Positions 19,915 through 29,017 of a stretch of 64,000 bases of DNA are shown here, piece after piece. The notes under the pieces were generated by a model. The model made no database searches. It saw nothing but the letters and a program-made list of their open reading frames with translations, and had not been told where the DNA came from. Source of the stretch: Desulfobacterales bacterium (GTDB taxonomy: Bacteria > Desulfobacterota > Desulfobacteria > Desulfobacterales > UBA5852); assembly GCA_963674755.2 (NCBI GenBank), contig CAXXVS010000003.1, positions 2,528,001-2,592,000 of the forward strand. The letters are read 5' to 3'. A program made the translations under genes and the position numbers. Positions within the stretch are counted from its first letter, which is position 1. Every line of letters begins with the position of its first letter.

Positions 19915-20742
19915 ATGGCCAAGATGAACAATTTAATGGAGCTTTTTCGACTGCTTGACAAATCCAACTGCCGCAAGTGCAACGAGAAGACCTGTCTGGC
20001 CTTTGCGGCGGCCGTTTTCCAGGGCCGCAAGGACATCACGGAATGCCCCAAACTCACGCCGGAGATTATCACCCGGTTTTCCGATTCGCCCATATCAGGA
20101 CGCACAGCGACCATCGAAGAAAACCGGGACGAATACCTGGCGACCCTGAAGCAGCAAATCGGCGGTATCGATCTGGCCGAGGCGGTCGCGCGCACCGGCG
20201 GCCGACTCAACGGGGACCGGCTGACCCTCAAAATCATGGGCAAGGATTTCAGCGTGGACCGGCAGGGCAACCTCTATGCCGATATCCACGTCAACCCCTG
20301 GGTGGCCATGCCGTTTCTCGATTACGTGCTGCATGGCGAGGGGGTGAGCCCCACCGGCAATTGGGTGTCCCTGCGGGAACTCAGGGAGGGCGGCGAGCGC
20401 TATCCGCTGTTCCAGAAGCGCTGCGAGGAGGCCATGAAACGGGTGGCCGACACCTATCCGGAGCTCTTCGACGACCTGGTGCATATTTTCAGCGGCCGGC
20501 AGGTGGCCGAACAGTTCGCCGCGGACATATCGGTGGTTCTGGACCCGCTGCCCAAGGTGCCCGTCATGATCTGCTACTGGCGGCCGGAAGACGGGCTGGC
20601 CTCCACCCTGAACGTCTTCTTCGACGAGACCGCCGACCGCAACCTGGATACCGGATCGCTTTTTTCCCTGGGAGCGGGGCTGACCACCATGTTCGAGAAG
20701 CTGGCCCTGCGGCACGGCTTCAGTGAATTGGCATCTTCTTGA
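19915..20742 (+). CDS. Fe-S (CxxCxxxxC...CP) plus DUF3786-like protein
   Basis: LDKSNCRKCNEKTCLAFA...CP N-terminus; PLPKVP...W..ED C-terminal region. Confidence 0.75.
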   Translation: MAKMNNLMELFRLLDKSNCRKCNEKTCLAFAAAVFQGRKDITECPKLTPEIITRFSDSPISGRTATIEENRDEYLATLKQQIGGIDLAEAVARTGGRLNGDRLTLKIMGKDFSVDRQGNLYADIHVNPWVAMPFLDYVLHGEGVSPTGNWVSLRELREGGERYPLFQKRCEEAMKRVADTYPELFDDLVHIFSGRQVAEQFAADISVVLDPLPKVPVMICYWRPEDGLASTLNVFFDETADRNLDTGSLFSLGAGLTTMFEKLALRHGFSELASS

Positions 20743-22500: not shown

Positions 22501-22516
22501 TGGCACGCCTTATGCT
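22501..22516 (+). promoter_or_regulatory. Sigma54 -24/-12 promoter
   Basis: TGGCACGCCTTATGCT (GG-N10-GC) at the end of an AT-rich 350-bp spacer, divergent from the enhancer-binding protein. Confidence 0.85.
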
Positions 22517-22579
22517 TTAGATGGCGCGTTTCAAGGCCGAAAGGCGGCCTTTCACCCCATCCCAGGAGAAACAGAAGCA

Positions 22580-22771
22580 ATGAAGTGGCAGGAATACGAT
22601 GGCGTTTATGGCGACGGCGATGATGTCCCGTCCCGGCGCTCCCGACGGACCAAGTTCAGGGAATTCGAAAATTACGCCCATGCGGCCGCTGGCCGGATCA
22701 AACGATCCGGCAAAAGGTCCCATCGGCCAAAAAACGTTAAAGATGATGACTGGGCCGGCTACGACCGTTAG
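22580..22771 (+). CDS. 63-aa charged peptide, candidate precursor or substrate
   Basis: First ORF after the sigma54 promoter; AGGAG RBS at 22564-22568; MKWQEYDG...DDDWAGYDR. Confidence 0.7.
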   Translation: MKWQEYDGVYGDGDDVPSRRSRRTKFREFENYAHAAAGRIKRSGKRSHRPKNVKDDDWAGYDR

Positions 22772-22822
22772 AAACGGGCCCGGCCGCGATGACAGGCGAT
22801 TCATGCCTCAGGAGAATGCTTC

Positions 22823-23797
22823 ATGCTCGATGTCCGCGTATGCAATGATACAAGTGAAGTCCATCGGCTCTGGCAGCATCATTGGTCCCCCAAATGTCTG
22901 TTTGACCTTTGGCCGGTGAGGGCCTGCTTCCAGCGGCATTTCCAGAACACCCCCCATGTCCTCGTGGCCGAGCGGCACGGCGTCTTTCGGGGCCTGCTGG
23001 CTTTGAGCTGGATCGAAGAGGAGCAGTATTTCGGCCACTTCCCCGGAGAATTGTGGCATGGCAGGACCTGGCTGGAGCAAAACCGCGTTCTGGCCGAAGA
23101 TCAGGCCACCTTCGAAGCCCTGTGGGAAGCTGTGCCCGTCAATACCGAGATGCGCTATCTGCATTCGGACAGCATGCCCGCAGGCGCACCGGTAGACCTG
23201 GATGAAATCGGCTACCTTTTCCGTCCGCCCCAGTACCACTACGATTTCAACGCTTACCTGGCCGAATTTTCCGGCAAGACCCGCAAAAAAATGCGTTGCG
23301 AAATCGATCGTCTGCATACCAAGGGGGTTTCCTTCCGCTACAACCGCCTGGCGGATGTGGACCGCCTCTTCCGGCTCAACATGGAAGCCTTCGGGAAGAA
23401 CTCCTATTTCAGCGACGGGCGCTTTCTAAGCGCTTTTGAAGATCTGGTGGTCTGGCTCCACAGCCATAACCTGCTGCGCGTGACGACGGTGCTCGTGGGG
23501 GGCGAAATGGCGGCGGTGGATATCGGGGCCGTCTGGAACGGCATGTATACGGTGGTGGCCGGCGGGGCCTGCAGCGATTTCCCCGGGGTGGCCAAATTGA
23601 TCAATTTCCACCACCTGGCCTGGGCCTGCGAGCGGAAGCTGCGGGAAGTGGATTTCCTGTGTGGGGAGTTCAACTGGAAAAATCGGTTTCATCTGGCGCC
23701 CCGTCCCCTCTACCAGATGGTGAAACAGGTTCCGGTCGAAGCGGCCTGTGCGTACCTGCCCGCACCGGCCACGGAGTTGATTTGTGCCGCCGGGTGA
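22823..23797 (+). CDS. GNAT-superfamily (FemAB/BcsL-like tandem GNAT) transferase
   Basis: YLAEFSGKTRKKMR helix, PGVAKL, EVDFLCGEFNWKNRF; RBS AGGAG. Confidence 0.7.
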   Translation: MLDVRVCNDTSEVHRLWQHHWSPKCLFDLWPVRACFQRHFQNTPHVLVAERHGVFRGLLALSWIEEEQYFGHFPGELWHGRTWLEQNRVLAEDQATFEALWEAVPVNTEMRYLHSDSMPAGAPVDLDEIGYLFRPPQYHYDFNAYLAEFSGKTRKKMRCEIDRLHTKGVSFRYNRLADVDRLFRLNMEAFGKNSYFSDGRFLSAFEDLVVWLHSHNLLRVTTVLVGGEMAAVDIGAVWNGMYTVVAGGACSDFPGVAKLINFHHLAWACERKLREVDFLCGEFNWKNRFHLAPRPLYQMVKQVPVEAACAYLPAPATELICAAG

Positions 23798-25055
23798 CGA
23801 TCGACGGGTCCTGGTGGTCGGCACAACGCCCGATTATATCGACGATATTCGCAGCCGCGGTGCCGGGCAGGCGCTCTTCCTGACCGATCCCGCGCTGCGG
23901 CGGGACGCCCGGGAGCCGATGCCGGAACCCAAGGAAGAAATCGTCTGTGATCTGAGCGAGATGGAAGAGGTGGTACGCCAACTGGCGGACCACCTGGAGC
24001 GCTGGAAGATCGGGCTGACCGGTGTGGCCTGCTTCGATGACGAATCCATGGCCCTGGCTGCCCGTCTGGCCCGGGACTACGGATTGCCTTACCCCAGCAT
24101 GGAAGCCGTGGCCAACTGCCGTGACAAGTATCGCTCCAAAATACTTTGGGCCGCCCAGGGCCTGAGCACCCCGGCGGTCTGCAAGGTCGCCTCGCCCGAA
24201 GCGGCGGCGGCCTTCTGGCGGACGGCCGGTGGTCCGGTGGTGTTGAAACCCATCGGCGGCAGCGGCAGCGAACTCATGTTCCGCTGCGCCGGCGAAGCGG
24301 ATTGCATGCGCCACTTTCGCACCATTGCCGAGGGTTTGGCGCAACGGCAGGACAACCGGCTCTATCAGTCTTGCGCCGCCGGCGGTGCCGGGATTCTGGC
24401 CGAGGCCCTGATCGCCGGGGAGGAATACAGCTGCGATTTCCTGCTTGAAAACGGCCGGGCCATCGTGCTGCGCCTGACCCGCAAGGTGCGTTTCGAGGAG
24501 GAGCCCTTTGGAACGGCCAAGGCCTACAGCCTGCCGGAAGACTGGCCTGAAGGGCTGAGGGACGGTGCGTTCGAGACAATCCTGCAGCGCAGCGCCCAGG
24601 CCTTAGGTATCGAGCGGGCCGTTGGCATGCTTGATTTCTTTATCCATGGCGGCCAGGTGGTGTTGCTGGAGATGGCGCCCCGGCCCGGGGGCGATTGCCT
24701 GCCTGCGCTGGTGCGCCGTTGCTGCCAATTGGATGTGCTGCAATTGGCGCTGGATTTTGCCTGCCAAAAACCCCTCGACCGGAAGCCGACGGCGTCCCAT
24801 GCGCCCATGGTGGGGCTGCGGCTGCACGCCCCGGTCGAGGGCACCCTGGCCGGCATCGACGACCGGGAACTGCGCCGGGATCCCCGGGTGCGGGAGATCC
24901 ACCTGACCCGCCGGCCCGGCCACATCATCAAACGACCGCCGGCCGACTACGATGCCTGGCTGCTGGGGCACGTCCTCTTTGTGCCCGATCCCGGCCGAGA
25001 CGTGGCCGCCCAGTGCCGGGAGCTTTGCGGTCGCCTGCGAATCGAGGTGTATTAG
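23784..25055 (+). CDS. ATP-grasp ligase (L-amino acid ligase-like)
   Basis: CRDKY, VVLKPxGGSGS, EALIAGEEYSCD, LEMAPRPGGD; C-terminal LAL_C2-like region. Confidence 0.85.
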   Translation: MPPGDDRRVLVVGTTPDYIDDIRSRGAGQALFLTDPALRRDAREPMPEPKEEIVCDLSEMEEVVRQLADHLERWKIGLTGVACFDDESMALAARLARDYGLPYPSMEAVANCRDKYRSKILWAAQGLSTPAVCKVASPEAAAAFWRTAGGPVVLKPIGGSGSELMFRCAGEADCMRHFRTIAEGLAQRQDNRLYQSCAAGGAGILAEALIAGEEYSCDFLLENGRAIVLRLTRKVRFEEEPFGTAKAYSLPEDWPEGLRDGAFETILQRSAQALGIERAVGMLDFFIHGGQVVLLEMAPRPGGDCLPALVRRCCQLDVLQLALDFACQKPLDRKPTASHAPMVGLRLHAPVEGTLAGIDDRELRRDPRVREIHLTRRPGHIIKRPPADYDAWLLGHVLFVPDPGRDVAAQCRELCGRLRIEVY

Positions 25056-25058
25056 CCC

Positions 25059-26366
25059 ATGCCGGTCACCGATCCTTCCGCCTATTTGCCGGCGATCAAG
25101 GCCACGACTGAAGCCGCGCCGCCGCGCCTGTCGCCGGACCGGCTGCAGGACTTCATCCGTCCCTATTTCGACCGCCGGGAGGTCTATCTCAACCTTCTTG
25201 CAACCCACCCGCCGCCGTTGTATGTGCAGGAATCCGGGGTGCTGCGGGCCCGGGCGGCCCGCCTGCAGAAGGCGTTTGCCGGACGGCTGCCGGCGGTGGA
25301 CTTTTACTACGCCGTCAAGAGCAACAACCACCCCCATGTGGCCGGCGTCCTGATCGACGCGGGTTTCGGGCTGGATGTGTCCAGCGGTCTGGAGCTGGAA
25401 ATGGCGCTCGAACTGGGGGCGCGGGATATCGTCTTCAGCGGCCCGGGCAAAACCATGGATGAACTGCGCCTGGCCGTGGCGAACGCCGACCGGGTGACGG
25501 TCCTGATGGACAGCTTCGGCGAGCTGGCGCGTCTGGAGGCGTTGACCACGGCCGCGCAGGTCCCCCTACGCTGCGGGGTGCGGCTGACGGTGGACCCCCA
25601 GGGCGTGTGGCGCAAATTCGGCATAACCCTGGACCGGCTGCCCGCTTTCCTGGAAGCGGCCGGGGCCTGTCCGAACCTGAAGATGGCCGGGCTCCAGTTT
25701 CACACCAGCTGGAATATGGGCCCCGACCCGCAGATCCGGTTCATGACCGCCCTGGGGAAAACCCTGTCCGGGATGCCCCCGACCCTGCGGCGCCGGATCG
25801 AATTCGTCGATATCGGCGGCGGTTATTGGCCGGAAGACGGCGAGTGGCTCCAGGCGGCCGGCACGCCGCAAGGCAAACTGAACGACGCCCTGGGAAAGCC
25901 GCCCGGCCCCCTCGATGCCCATTACCATTGGCCGGCCGCCCCCATCGAGGTCTTTGCCGAAGCCCTGAGCGCGGCCGTCCATGAGCACCTGCTGCCGGTG
26001 GTGGACTGTCGGATCTGCCTGGAGCCCGGGCGCTGGATCTGCCACCCGGCCGTACAGCTGCTGCTCTCGGTGGTGGACAAGAAGGCCCCGGACCTGGTGA
26101 TCACGGACGCCGGGACCAATACGGTGGGCTGGGAGCGCTTCGAAACGGACTACTTTCCGGTGCTCAACCTCAGCCGCCCGTCACTCGTGGAGCGGCCCTG
26201 CTATGTCCTGGGCTCCCTTTGCACGCCCCACGACGTTTGGGGGTACGGTTATTTCGGCGCGGACATCCAGCCGGGGGATATCCTGATGATCCCGGCCCAG
26301 GGGGCCTATACCTATAGTTTGCGACAGACCTTCATCAAGCCGCTGCCCAGGGTCCATACGATTTGA
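25059..26366 (+). CDS. Fold-III PLP decarboxylase (Orn/DAP/Arg decarboxylase family)
   Basis: YAVKSN (PLP Lys), LDVSSGLEL, FSGPGK, KFG, DIGGG, EPGR, GSLCTPHD and GAYT. Confidence 0.9.
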   Translation: MPVTDPSAYLPAIKATTEAAPPRLSPDRLQDFIRPYFDRREVYLNLLATHPPPLYVQESGVLRARAARLQKAFAGRLPAVDFYYAVKSNNHPHVAGVLIDAGFGLDVSSGLELEMALELGARDIVFSGPGKTMDELRLAVANADRVTVLMDSFGELARLEALTTAAQVPLRCGVRLTVDPQGVWRKFGITLDRLPAFLEAAGACPNLKMAGLQFHTSWNMGPDPQIRFMTALGKTLSGMPPTLRRRIEFVDIGGGYWPEDGEWLQAAGTPQGKLNDALGKPPGPLDAHYHWPAAPIEVFAEALSAAVHEHLLPVVDCRICLEPGRWICHPAVQLLLSVVDKKAPDLVITDAGTNTVGWERFETDYFPVLNLSRPSLVERPCYVLGSLCTPHDVWGYGYFGADIQPGDILMIPAQGAYTYSLRQTFIKPLPRVHTI

Positions 26367-26407
26367 CGCAGGGCCGCGGAACGATCAACCGAATCAAACG
26401 TGAACCC

Positions 26408-27130
26408 ATGACGACGCTGCAATTCGATATCTGGCCCCAGCCCGACAACACCACCTGCGGCCCCACCTGCCTGCACGCGGTCTACCGTTATTACGACGAT
26501 ACCATCGCGCTTTCCCAGGTCATCGAGGCGGTGCCCACCATCGAGGGCGGGGGCACTTTGTCCGTCTATCTTGCGATGCACGCCCTGCAACGCGGGTATC
26601 GGACCACGATCATCCCCTACAACCTGCAGATCTTCGACCCCACCTGGGCCGGTCTGCCGCCGGCGGAGATCATTCTCCGGCTCCGACGCCAGGCCGACGT
26701 CAAAAAGGGCGTGCCGGGGTTCCAGCAGGTTTCGGAGGCCTATCTGGAATACCTCCGGCTCGGGGGGCGGCTGCATTTCGACGTGCTTACCGCCAGCCTG
26801 ATCCGCAGTTATCTCAAGCGTGGGATTCCCATCCTGACCGGCTTGAGCGCCACCTACCTCTATGACTGCTCCCGGGAATACGATGTGGGCGGCGAGGTGG
26901 TCTACGATGATGTGCGCGGGGCCTCCTGCGGCCATTTTGTCGTGCTGGCGGGATACAACCGCGAGGCGCGCCGGGCATTGGTGGCGGACCCTTTTTTGCC
27001 GAATCCTCTGGCGGACGGGCAGCACTATGCCGTGTCCCTGGATCGACTGGTGTGCGCCATCCTGCTCGGCATTCTGACTTACGACGGCGACCTGCTGATC
27101 ATCCAGCAGGAACGCCGGAAGAAACGATGA
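26408..27130 (+). CDS. Stand-alone peptidase C39-like papain-fold cysteine protease
   Basis: Q-x5-C (QPDNTTCGPTCL), GHFVV and VADP catalytic set; alternative TTG start at 26363 overlaps the previous stop. Confidence 0.8.
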   Translation: MTTLQFDIWPQPDNTTCGPTCLHAVYRYYDDTIALSQVIEAVPTIEGGGTLSVYLAMHALQRGYRTTIIPYNLQIFDPTWAGLPPAEIILRLRRQADVKKGVPGFQQVSEAYLEYLRLGGRLHFDVLTASLIRSYLKRGIPILTGLSATYLYDCSREYDVGGEVVYDDVRGASCGHFVVLAGYNREARRALVADPFLPNPLADGQHYAVSLDRLVCAILLGILTYDGDLLIIQQERRKKR

Positions 27131-27840
27131 TCGCCACCTTCGGTTTAGAGCCCGGCTGCATCCTGGCCGGGAAGTATGAAGTCCTGTCCTGCCTCGGCCG
27201 CGGCTGGGAAAGCGAAGTCTACAAGATCCGTGAGCTGAAAACCCGTATCGAGCGGGCGGCCAAGATTTTTTTCCCCCACCGCAACCCCGATAACCGCAAT
27301 GCAGTGGTCTATGCCAAAAAGCTGCACAAGCTGCGGTCCTGTCCGCTGCTGATCCAGTACCACACCTTTGAGCAGATTCCCTATGAGGGCACCCCGCTGA
27401 CGGCCTTTATCTCCGATTACGTCGAAGGGGAGCTCCTCTCCGACTACCTGGCCCGCCAGAGAGGCCGGCGGTTGACGGTCTTCAAAGGCATCCACCTGCT
27501 GCATGCCCTGGCAACAGGGATCGAGAGCATTCACGGTCTGGGGGAATACCATGGCGACCTGCATGCCAAAAATGTGGTGGTGCAGCGTCTGGGAATGACT
27601 TTTGAGCTCAAACTGCTGGATCTTTTCCACCGGGGGCGCGCCACCCGCGACAACCGCCAGGACGATATCTGCAGCAGCATCCGTCTCTTCTACGATGCCA
27701 TCGGCGGTCCCCGGCGCTATGCCGGACAGCCCCCGCCGGTCAAAGCCATCTGCTGCGGCCTCAAACGCACCCTTATCCTGAAGAAATTTCGCACGGCCCG
27801 GGATTTGCGCCTCTATCTGGAAACCCAGGACTGGCGTTAG
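27127..27840 (+). CDS. Minimal Ser/Thr protein kinase-like protein (237 aa)
   Basis: LGRGWESEVY, AAK, YHGDLHAKN, LLDLF; ATGA overlap with the peptidase stop. Confidence 0.8.
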   Translation: MIATFGLEPGCILAGKYEVLSCLGRGWESEVYKIRELKTRIERAAKIFFPHRNPDNRNAVVYAKKLHKLRSCPLLIQYHTFEQIPYEGTPLTAFISDYVEGELLSDYLARQRGRRLTVFKGIHLLHALATGIESIHGLGEYHGDLHAKNVVVQRLGMTFELKLLDLFHRGRATRDNRQDDICSSIRLFYDAIGGPRRYAGQPPPVKAICCGLKRTLILKKFRTARDLRLYLETQDWR

Positions 27841-28042: not shown

Positions 28043-29017
28043 ATGAAATTTGTGAATCTCATGATAGCCCTATTTTTATTGATAATTATGCCATTATCCG
28101 GAGCGCTGGCCGGTGATGGTTTGCGGGTTTTTGTCAGCATTTTACCCCAACAATACTTCGTGCAACAAATTGGCGGAGAACATGTGAATGTGCAGGTCAT
28201 GGTGGCTCCCGGCGCCAGTCCGGCCACCTACGAGCCCAAGCCCCGGCAGATGGCCGCCCTTTCCAAAGCCCGGCTCTATTTTGCCATCGGGGTGCCCTTT
28301 GAAACGGCCTGGATGGACAAGATCGCCGCCGCCAATCCATCCATGCAGGTGGTGCACACGGAGCAGGGCATCCACAAGCAGCCCATGGCCGCCCACCATC
28401 ATGAGGGGGAGCACCATCAGGAGGACGAACACGATGAGGATGCCGGTCAACATGAGGGGGAGCACCATCACGAGGCCGAGCACCATGAAGATGCCGATCA
28501 GCACCCCGAAGACAGCCATCATGGGCCCGGCATTCTGGATCCCCATATCTGGCTGTCGCCGCCCCTGGTCAAAGTGCAGGCCGACACGATCATGAAGGCC
28601 CTCATGGCGGCGGATCCGGCCCATGCCGCCGACTATGAGCGCAACGGCCGGCGTTTTATGGCGGCGATCGATGTCCTGGACCGGGATCTTAAAAAAATGT
28701 TTGCCGGCCAGGAGGGGCGCCGGTTCATGGTGTTTCACCCCTCCTGGGGGTATTTCGCCGCGGCCTACGGCCTGGTGCAGGTGCCCATCGAATTGGAGGG
28801 TAAAGACCCCAAACCGGCCCAGTTGCAGGAACTCATCCGGTATGCTAGACAGCACCACATCAATGTCATTTTCGTGCAGCCGCAGTTTTCACGCCGCAGC
28901 GCAGCCCTCGTGGCCTCTGAAATCGGGGGACGGGTCGTCCCGGCGGATCCGCTGGCGTTGAACTGGATGGAAAATCTCCGCCAGGTGGCCGAAGCATTCG
29001 CGGCCGCCCTGCGATAA
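28043..29017 (+). CDS. znuA: Zinc ABC transporter substrate-binding protein
   Basis: Signal peptide; SPATYEPKP, His/acidic loop, DPHIWLSP, HPSWGYFA. Confidence 0.93.
   Translation: MKFVNLMIALFLLIIMPLSGALAGDGLRVFVSILPQQYFVQQIGGEHVNVQVMVAPGASPATYEPKPRQMAALSKARLYFAIGVPFETAWMDKIAAANPSMQVVHTEQGIHKQPMAAHHHEGEHHQEDEHDEDAGQHEGEHHHEAEHHEDADQHPEDSHHGPGILDPHIWLSPPLVKVQADTIMKALMAADPAHAADYERNGRRFMAAIDVLDRDLKKMFAGQEGRRFMVFHPSWGYFAAAYGLVQVPIELEGKDPKPAQLQELIRYARQHHINVIFVQPQFSRRSAALVASEIGGRVVPADPLALNWMENLRQVAEAFAAALR
28400..28501 (+). repeat. 51-bp tandem duplication in the ZnuA His-rich loop
   Basis: HEGEHHQEDEHDEDAGQ / HEGEHHHEAEHHEDADQ; both units start CATGAGGGGGAGCACCATCA. Confidence 0.85.

Follow-up and report, generated by a model that had tools for sequence, protein, structure and literature searches.

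A sigma54-controlled operon of a Desulfobacterales bacterium as a probable derived variant of a carrier-free putrescine-amide pathway

Introduction

The phevamine A cluster hsvABC (PMC6187163) and the fungal E-64 cp clusters (PMC12568646) are small gene clusters that work independently of non-ribosomal peptide synthetases (NRPS) and join amino acids and a polyamine by means of two amide-forming enzymes. Both set an earlier example of polyamine amides made by ATP-grasp enzymes (phevamine A itself and the E-64 analogues), and it was a dedicated pyridoxal 5'-phosphate (PLP) decarboxylase that led to the E-64 clusters. Here we compare with them a sigma54-controlled operon of six genes at positions 22501-27840 of a 64-kb stretch of a Desulfobacterales genome (contig CAXXVS010000003.1, positions 2,528,001 to 2,592,000; ‘the window’ hereafter). 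Its genes encode a microprotein, a Fem-like tandem-GNAT transferase, an ATP-grasp ligase, a fold-III PLP decarboxylase, a C39 peptidase and a small kinase-fold protein. The operon is probably a derived variant of a carrier-free, NRPS-independent pathway to a putrescine amide. It departs from the phevamine A and E-64 clusters in that one amide-forming enzyme is predicted to be tRNA-dependent, in a core that carries two decarboxylases, in hosts that are mostly anaerobic and in its control by sigma54 or TetR.

A second group of relatives is formed by FigA/FigC and SbnH/BtrK (PMC7857480), where a fold-III PLP enzyme, as here, lacks an acid beside the catalytic cysteine and acts on an amide-linked conjugate from a neighbouring ligase; the same action is predicted here. 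Unlike FigA/FigC, the operon uses an ATP-grasp enzyme instead of an NRPS-independent siderophore synthetase and adds a Fem-fold transferase, and no carrier protein or siderophore export gene is seen. An acyl carrier protein, a feature of the butirosin BtrI/J/K/H system, was absent from the 39 neighbour proteins scanned, which are a subset of the neighbours. A third comparison is with the SpeDC clusters of Li et al. 2023 (PMC10407285). In most related operons the enzyme encoded first shows the residue types that mark SpeDC, but the clusters in that paper are for spermidine or homospermidine, its main text holds neither the term ‘ATP-grasp’ nor the term ‘acetyltransferase’, and the gene was not found in the present genome. 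By analogy, the operon is akin to the phevamine A, E-64 and rhizoferrin amide pathways and is a member of none of them.

The first-pass annotation of this DNA had seen an undescribed amide-forming pathway in these genes, and this has stood: the ligase and the transferase are of amide-forming types, and literature searches returned no description of the operon, with subscription papers and bioRxiv supplements outside their reach and with Iyer et al. 2009 as a paper that may mention related neighbourhoods. What is new here is the mutual exclusion of SpeDC and AguA, a microprotein family and a clade of peptidases bound to the operon.

The conserved core

A profile of the ligase, run against genome contigs, gave 176 confirmed relatives, and the locus counts below refer to the best 80 of these. 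Genome counts refer to a sample of 301 genomes of the order, and the core tree is a FastTree phylogeny of the three core enzymes with 69 rows. The relatives among the best 80 span Thermodesulfobacteriota, Planctomycetota, Omnitrophota, Acidobacteriota and others, and the hosts are mostly anaerobes. The transferase (22823-23797, + strand) adjoins the ligase (23784-25055, +) in fixed order in 72 of the 74 loci with enough flank, and the decarboxylase (25059-26366, +) is adjacent in 70 of 72. The peptidase lies near the core in 11 and the kinase in three of 65 such loci, and the full six-gene form is a single clade (6/69 rows of the core tree). The part held in common consists of a Fem-like transferase, an ATP-grasp enzyme of the L-amino acid ligase (LAL) type and a FigC/BtrK-like decarboxylase; the microprotein, peptidase and kinase are optional additions to it. 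The expectation that relatives would show the same synteny was borne out for this core and not for the set of six. With the operon transferase in 55/301 genomes of the order and the core in several other phyla, such a polyamine conjugate may be widespread where sediments are anoxic. The gene order is shuffled in one Acidobacteriota locus (L098:7968-13177), which runs ligase, decarboxylase, and further on SpeDC and transferase, with an extra gene, DUF2156-like as judged by eye, before SpeDC.

The transferase matches PF13480, and in a fold search the first 11 ranks were all taken by Sba18, Sbb17, FemX and FemA, whereas its profile found no match among the sequences of the PDB. Sba18 and Sbb17 are aminoacyl-tRNA-dependent peptide synthases, and identity to these and to FemX is only 10-15%. 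The fold search makes the enzyme a FemX-type tandem GNAT, and it is predicted to act as an aminoacyl-tRNA-dependent amide synthase. The ligase exceeds the Pfam cut-offs for ATP-grasp_4 and LAL_C2 and falls below that for ATPgrasp_N. Its best profile matches in the PDB are 4dim, 3vot (an L-amino acid ligase) and BacD, and it scores well under the cut-offs of the RimK family. None of its 15 NCBIfam matches is a graspetide-maturase model, and none of the 15 attains its cut-off. The domain architecture thus assigns the ligase to the type that acts on free amino acids and not to the peptide-maturase or RimK types, and it does not support a pathway to ribosomally synthesized and post-translationally modified peptides (RiPPs) of the graspetide sort.

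The decarboxylase retains K87, H215, GGG253-255, E322, R325, C388 and Y417 without exception in 36 sequences, as it does T389, which follows the catalytic cysteine. Its best profile match is the N-citrylornithine decarboxylase FigC (7kh2; E 2e-38), followed by diaminopimelate decarboxylase (DAPDC), BtrK and SbnH. The loop reads CTP, as in BtrK and SbnH; a Trp aligns with the Arg of the DAPDC specificity helix; this helix bears acidic residues; and in the alignment both the enzyme and FigC carry a His at Cys+3. Ornithine decarboxylase (ODC), arginine decarboxylase and DAPDC bind the side-chain amine of their substrates through an acid next to the catalytic Cys (PMC7857480). With Thr in that place, the decarboxylase would be an enzyme of the FigC/SbnH/BtrK type that acts on conjugates, a reading of specificity that comes wholly from alignments. 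The proposal that this enzyme supplies the amine is not supported: it has no acid beside the catalytic Cys, and putrescine is likely to arrive through SpeDC or a substitute for it.

The supply of putrescine

Most relatives carry, directly before the transferase, a protein of 130-145 residues with the fold of S-adenosylmethionine decarboxylase (AdoMetDC). A SpeD-like match is present in 56 of the 79 loci with upstream room, two of the 56 being remnants, and 17 operon copies show Q87, T91, F98 and Y106 without exception. Li et al. 2023 traced ornithine decarboxylation to one clade of AdoMetDC homologues, with Gln, Thr, Phe and Tyr as the diagnostic residues (PMC10407285). The four invariant residues fit these types, with positions matched by eye, and the operon consensus is, again by eye, close to the proven ODC domain of Fig. 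S5 of that paper. The TIGR03330 model of AdoMetDC gives the first operon member 25 bits against a cut-off of 76. The gene that is missing here and present in most relatives is, on these diagnostic residues, a predicted SpeDC, a pyruvoyl-dependent ornithine decarboxylase.

On the core tree SpeDC is ancestral and was lost 3-5 times. A move to another place in the genome was rejected as an explanation, as the SpeDC profile found nothing in 22/22 SpeDC-less genomes, nor in the present one, and as a control it matched in 27/27 genomes that had at first been counted as SpeDC-positive. G619 and G630, which are among the 27, hold remnants only and were moved from the positive to the ‘lost’ group. The remnants lie between promoter and transferase (L043 of G619, profile positions 106-137; L067 of G630, positions 6-41) and are SpeDC loss caught midway.

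Where SpeDC is lost or broken, agmatine deiminase is present in 21/25 genomes; where it is intact, in one of 25, and that match is divergent and split. Three of the four genomes with neither SpeDC nor deiminase hold a fold-III enzyme with the Cys-Asp loop of ODC. In four SpeDC-less loci (L035, L037, L038 and L040) the activator has aguA and a gene for a Pot-type binding protein as neighbours, and three of the four carry aguB as well. The present genome has its aguA-Pot cluster at G000:C3:2654140-2659307, ~105 kb from the operon and 70-83% identical, its aguB orthologue on another contig, and a canonical speD-speE pair at G000:C2:1814897-1816230. Because lineages that lost SpeDC almost always hold another route to putrescine, this amine is the likely input of the pathway and would be supplied here from outside the operon. 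Several observations weigh on the other side. No recognisable gene for arginine decarboxylase, agmatinase or ornithine decarboxylase is found in this genome; G619 lacks SpeDC, and no substitute route to putrescine was found there; in G003 and G004 the deiminase match is broken into two; one SpeDC-intact genome has an ODC-type enzyme as well; and the loss events are few and linked by kinship.

Two other readings of the decarboxylases bear on this point. In the first, which is like rhizoferrin synthesis, ornithine comes first: the ligase or transferase would acylate it and the PLP enzyme would decarboxylate the resulting N-acyl-ornithine to acyl-putrescine, with SpeDC feeding a second step or acting as a dispensable booster. 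The match to FigC with its shared His at Cys+3 agrees with such a route, as do the repeated loss of SpeDC beside a PLP enzyme that stays in place (70/72 loci) and the state of G619. A route of this kind has no need of the putrescine supply that nearly always accompanies the loss of SpeDC, and we regard it as rather unlikely. In the second, the PLP enzyme would be an arginine decarboxylase whose agmatine is passed to putrescine by AguA and AguB, making SpeDC redundant wherever AguAB exist. This would account for a genome with AguA and AguB and no recognisable arginine decarboxylase, and the acidic residues of the specificity helix agree with it, but the residue after the catalytic Cys is Thr instead of Asp, SpeDC-intact genomes retain the PLP enzyme with no AguA, three SpeDC-less genomes have an ODC-type enzyme and again no AguA, and AguA here adjoins a Pot-type ABC transporter. 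It is a very unlikely reading.

In the putrescine-amide pathway that we favour, putrescine would be the amine acceptor. The Fem-fold transferase would aminoacylate one of its amines from aminoacyl-tRNA, and a second residue, which may be Glu or Asp, would be added by the ATP-grasp ligase. The PLP enzyme would then remove the alpha-carboxyl group of this second residue, as BtrK and FigC do on their conjugates, to leave a small polyamine-like amide of the aminoacyl-putrescine type. The C39 enzyme would hydrolyse or edit an amide of the pathway, the microprotein would be an optional partner and the kinase a passenger. A direct search for the product is feasible in a cultured relative, Desulfosarcina alkanivorans (L033), which has the peptidase together with the microprotein and all three genes of the core. 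The dedicated clade of putative amide hydrolases and the microprotein family provide two further handles for bench work.

The C39 peptidase

The peptidase (26408-27130, +, with an alternative TTG start at 26363) is a stand-alone papain-fold protein of 240 residues, of the C39_2 type (PF13529), with its Q/C/H/D motifs intact. It had been taken for an enzyme that matures or reverses a peptide product. Its tie to the operon has held, while the fusion to an ABC exporter that marks double-glycine leader peptidases of the C39 family is absent. The same family heads the C39-RLAN/RimK-GCS2-FGase cassette in seven of eight other phylum matches, and identity to RimK-linked copies is 44-60%, but the present enzyme falls in a separate clade and has no RimK or GCS2 alongside; neither gene is found anywhere else in this genome.

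The family occurs in 30/301 genomes of the order. Twelve of the 30 copies are linked to RimK, in genomes that all lack the operon. The remaining 18 have no RimK alongside, ten lying beside the operon and eight elsewhere, and the operon transferase is present in 17 of the 18 genomes; in the eighteenth, the peptidase stands beside the decarboxylase. Two further loci have the peptidase upstream of a TetR-type operon. On the peptidase tree, all 25 non-RimK rows form one branch (support 99/95) nested among RimK-linked copies. The C39 enzyme was probably recruited once from the RimK/GCS2 amide-ligase cassettes and probably depends on the present pathway, although it occurs in only 17/55 operon genomes. 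It is likely to hydrolyse or edit the amide of this pathway.

The microprotein

The first gene (22580-22771, +) is optional and encodes 63 residues with no Pfam match; a Shine-Dalgarno-like AGGAG precedes it. The ratio of nonsynonymous to synonymous substitution (dN/dS) is 0.08-0.40 in 11 of 12 pairs, the remaining pair being saturated. About 50% of the residues are charged, the N-terminal part is variable, and the C-terminal part carries the motif K41-x-S-G44-K45-R46-x-H48-R49-x-K-T52-x-K54-D55-x-x-W58 (K41 in 45, R46 in 46, H48 in 45, R49 in 45, K54 in 42 and W58 in 41 of 47 sequences). GG is present in nine of the 47. A profile of the microprotein finds 53 clusters among 1.84 billion representatives, no Pfam family is common to 20 of its members, and an ESM Atlas search gave nothing above 0.88, with recognition low. 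Twelve of the 301 genomes have the gene, and in all 12 it follows the sigma54 box and precedes the first enzyme gene. Selection and position both argue that the small upstream reading frame, already thought to be genuine, is a real gene belonging to the operon system.

The profile finds no microprotein in 43 of the 55 operon genomes; it does miss a few charged reading frames that have diverged, and in several loci the promoter is 80-150 bp from the first enzyme and leaves no room. The microprotein therefore cannot be an obligatory precursor. The TetR-type loci gave no match to it. Divergent, charged micro-reading frames missed by the profile occupy the same slot in L092 (~630 bp before the transferase), L023 and L064, one of these being from Planctomycetota. 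Three specific roles were considered and rejected. A replacement for SpeDC is ruled out by loci that carry both (13) or neither (10), beside 13 with the microprotein alone and 43 with the SpeD-like match alone. An attenuator or leader peptide is contradicted by the lack of a conserved hairpin 3' of the gene in 26 loci. Amino-group carriers of the LysW type have a fixed C-terminal glutamate motif, and the C-termini here differ in length and residue. The microprotein is most likely an optional co-expressed partner, a binder or a regulator and not an obligatory substrate.

The presence of a small, highly charged partner raises the matter of protein tagging, in which an aminoacyl or polyamine tag would be placed on a protein side chain, with the microprotein as acceptor, decoy or store and the C39 enzyme as the remover of the tag. 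The conserved Lys41, Lys45 and Lys54 and the acidic residues near W58 would offer sites; the microprotein is under purifying selection, has a sharp motif and is found only behind this promoter; and the operon has a C39 clade bound to it. Enzymes of the FemX fold use peptide substrates, and for BtrK the substrate is a carrier protein in glutamylated form (PMC7857480). Microprotein and peptidase occur together in seven of the 55 operon genomes, the microprotein without peptidase in five, the peptidase without microprotein in ten and neither in 33, a co-occurrence with a raw p of 0.03. On collapsing one genus, however, p becomes 0.23, and ten of 17 peptidase genomes without microprotein and five of 12 microprotein genomes without peptidase tell against a tag and its eraser, as do the many operon genomes with no microprotein match and a LAL-type ligase far under the RimK-family cut-offs. 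We consider protein tagging unlikely. Its more specific form, a reversible polyamination in which ligase and decarboxylase build an aminobutyryl- or putrescine-type tag on a conserved Lys or acidic residue of the microprotein, or of a host target in genomes that lack it, with the C39 clade as eraser, is quite improbable. The S-G-K-R-x-H stretch of the microprotein is reminiscent of the eIF5A loop whose lysine undergoes hypusination, and polyamination of this kind, if true, would be its counterpart in bacteria, with an amide link.

The kinase

The last gene (27127-27840, +) encodes a small protein with the Ser/Thr-kinase fold (PF00069). It occurs in four of the 301 genomes, all of one genus, within which it is 85-95% identical. 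The family as a whole is widespread (3,390 proteins, with a conserved HGDLH loop). Of the 80 metagenome loci with this kinase, 76 have no operon gene, many of the contigs being short, and in 40 of the 67 with room a PP2C gene follows directly. In these kinase and PP2C pairs (L134-L213, e.g. L183:6001-7529), DLF, DMF or DFF replaces DFG and there is no other common neighbour. No PP2C gene follows the kinase here, and the genome has a single weak PP2C-like match elsewhere (27%). A part in the RimK cassette is ruled out for the kinase, as RimK, GCS2 and FGase gave no match in the 80 loci. SET-domain genes (L137:3315-4004; L128:360-974) lie between peptidase and kinase in some close relatives and also near a RimK cassette. 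The kinase is likely to be a recent passenger that joined in one genus.

The first-pass annotation had gone further and bound all six genes into a RiPP or peptide-tagging unit, with the peptide as precursor, the PLP enzyme as the source of an amine and peptidase and kinase as maturation enzymes. Gene order, tight junctions, a small first reading frame and a kinase that is well conserved within its genus speak for such a unit. The six-gene form is nevertheless confined to one small clade, the kinase is rare in the order and mostly found apart from the operon, the SET-domain gene splits peptidase from kinase, no graspetide-maturase model appears among the ligase matches, and the microprotein, so often unmatched, shows no firm association with the peptidase once kinship is allowed for. 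A six-gene RiPP is extremely improbable, and the putrescine-amide pathway is preferred.

Regulation and genomic context

The sigma54 -24/-12 promoter is at 22501-22516 (+; TGGCACGCCTTATGCT), with GG at 22502-3 and GC at 22514-5. The window has no other strict match to this box, of which the whole genome holds 19; a relaxed box arises in 53 of 20,000 shuffles of intergenic DNA, and a sigma54 box also precedes the first gene in many relatives. The six + strand genes behind it are joined, in order, by +51 bp, -14, +3, +41 (-4 with the TTG start) and an ATGA overlap of -4, and all six are single-copy in the 6.7-Mb genome. Judged from the sequence, promoter and junctions mark the six genes as a real operon, and they would be transcribed together. 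On the - strand, diverging from it, lies the sigma54 activator (22144-20720; AAA+ domain, PF00158 E 1.8e-69; GAFTGA at residue 218; a Fis helix-turn-helix and a receiver-like N-terminus). Promoter, gene junctions and divergent enhancer-binding protein had all been noticed at first sight and were recovered, and Pfam agrees with the family labels given to the enzymes.

An orthologue of the activator lies ≤4.5 kb upstream in 42 of the 58 loci with room, and in 12 loci a TetR gene takes its place. The receiver-like domain reads VIVISE at the expected site of the phospho-acceptor Asp, and no histidine kinase recurs beside the activator across the loci. For these two reasons the activator may sense a ligand directly.

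None of the six operon genes encodes a transporter, as had been said before. Upstream, an FeS/DUF3786 gene (19918-20742, +) is convergent with the activator. Downstream, genes of the ZnuABC type begin at 28043 and run to 31099 (+), znuA being followed by genes for an ABC ATPase, a permease and a Fur/Zur-like protein, these last three named by eye. Both flanks are common to the closest relatives only. A DksA-family gene is found in nine loci from several phyla, often near the core (L044, L050, L059, L067, L074, L075, L093, L099 and L103).

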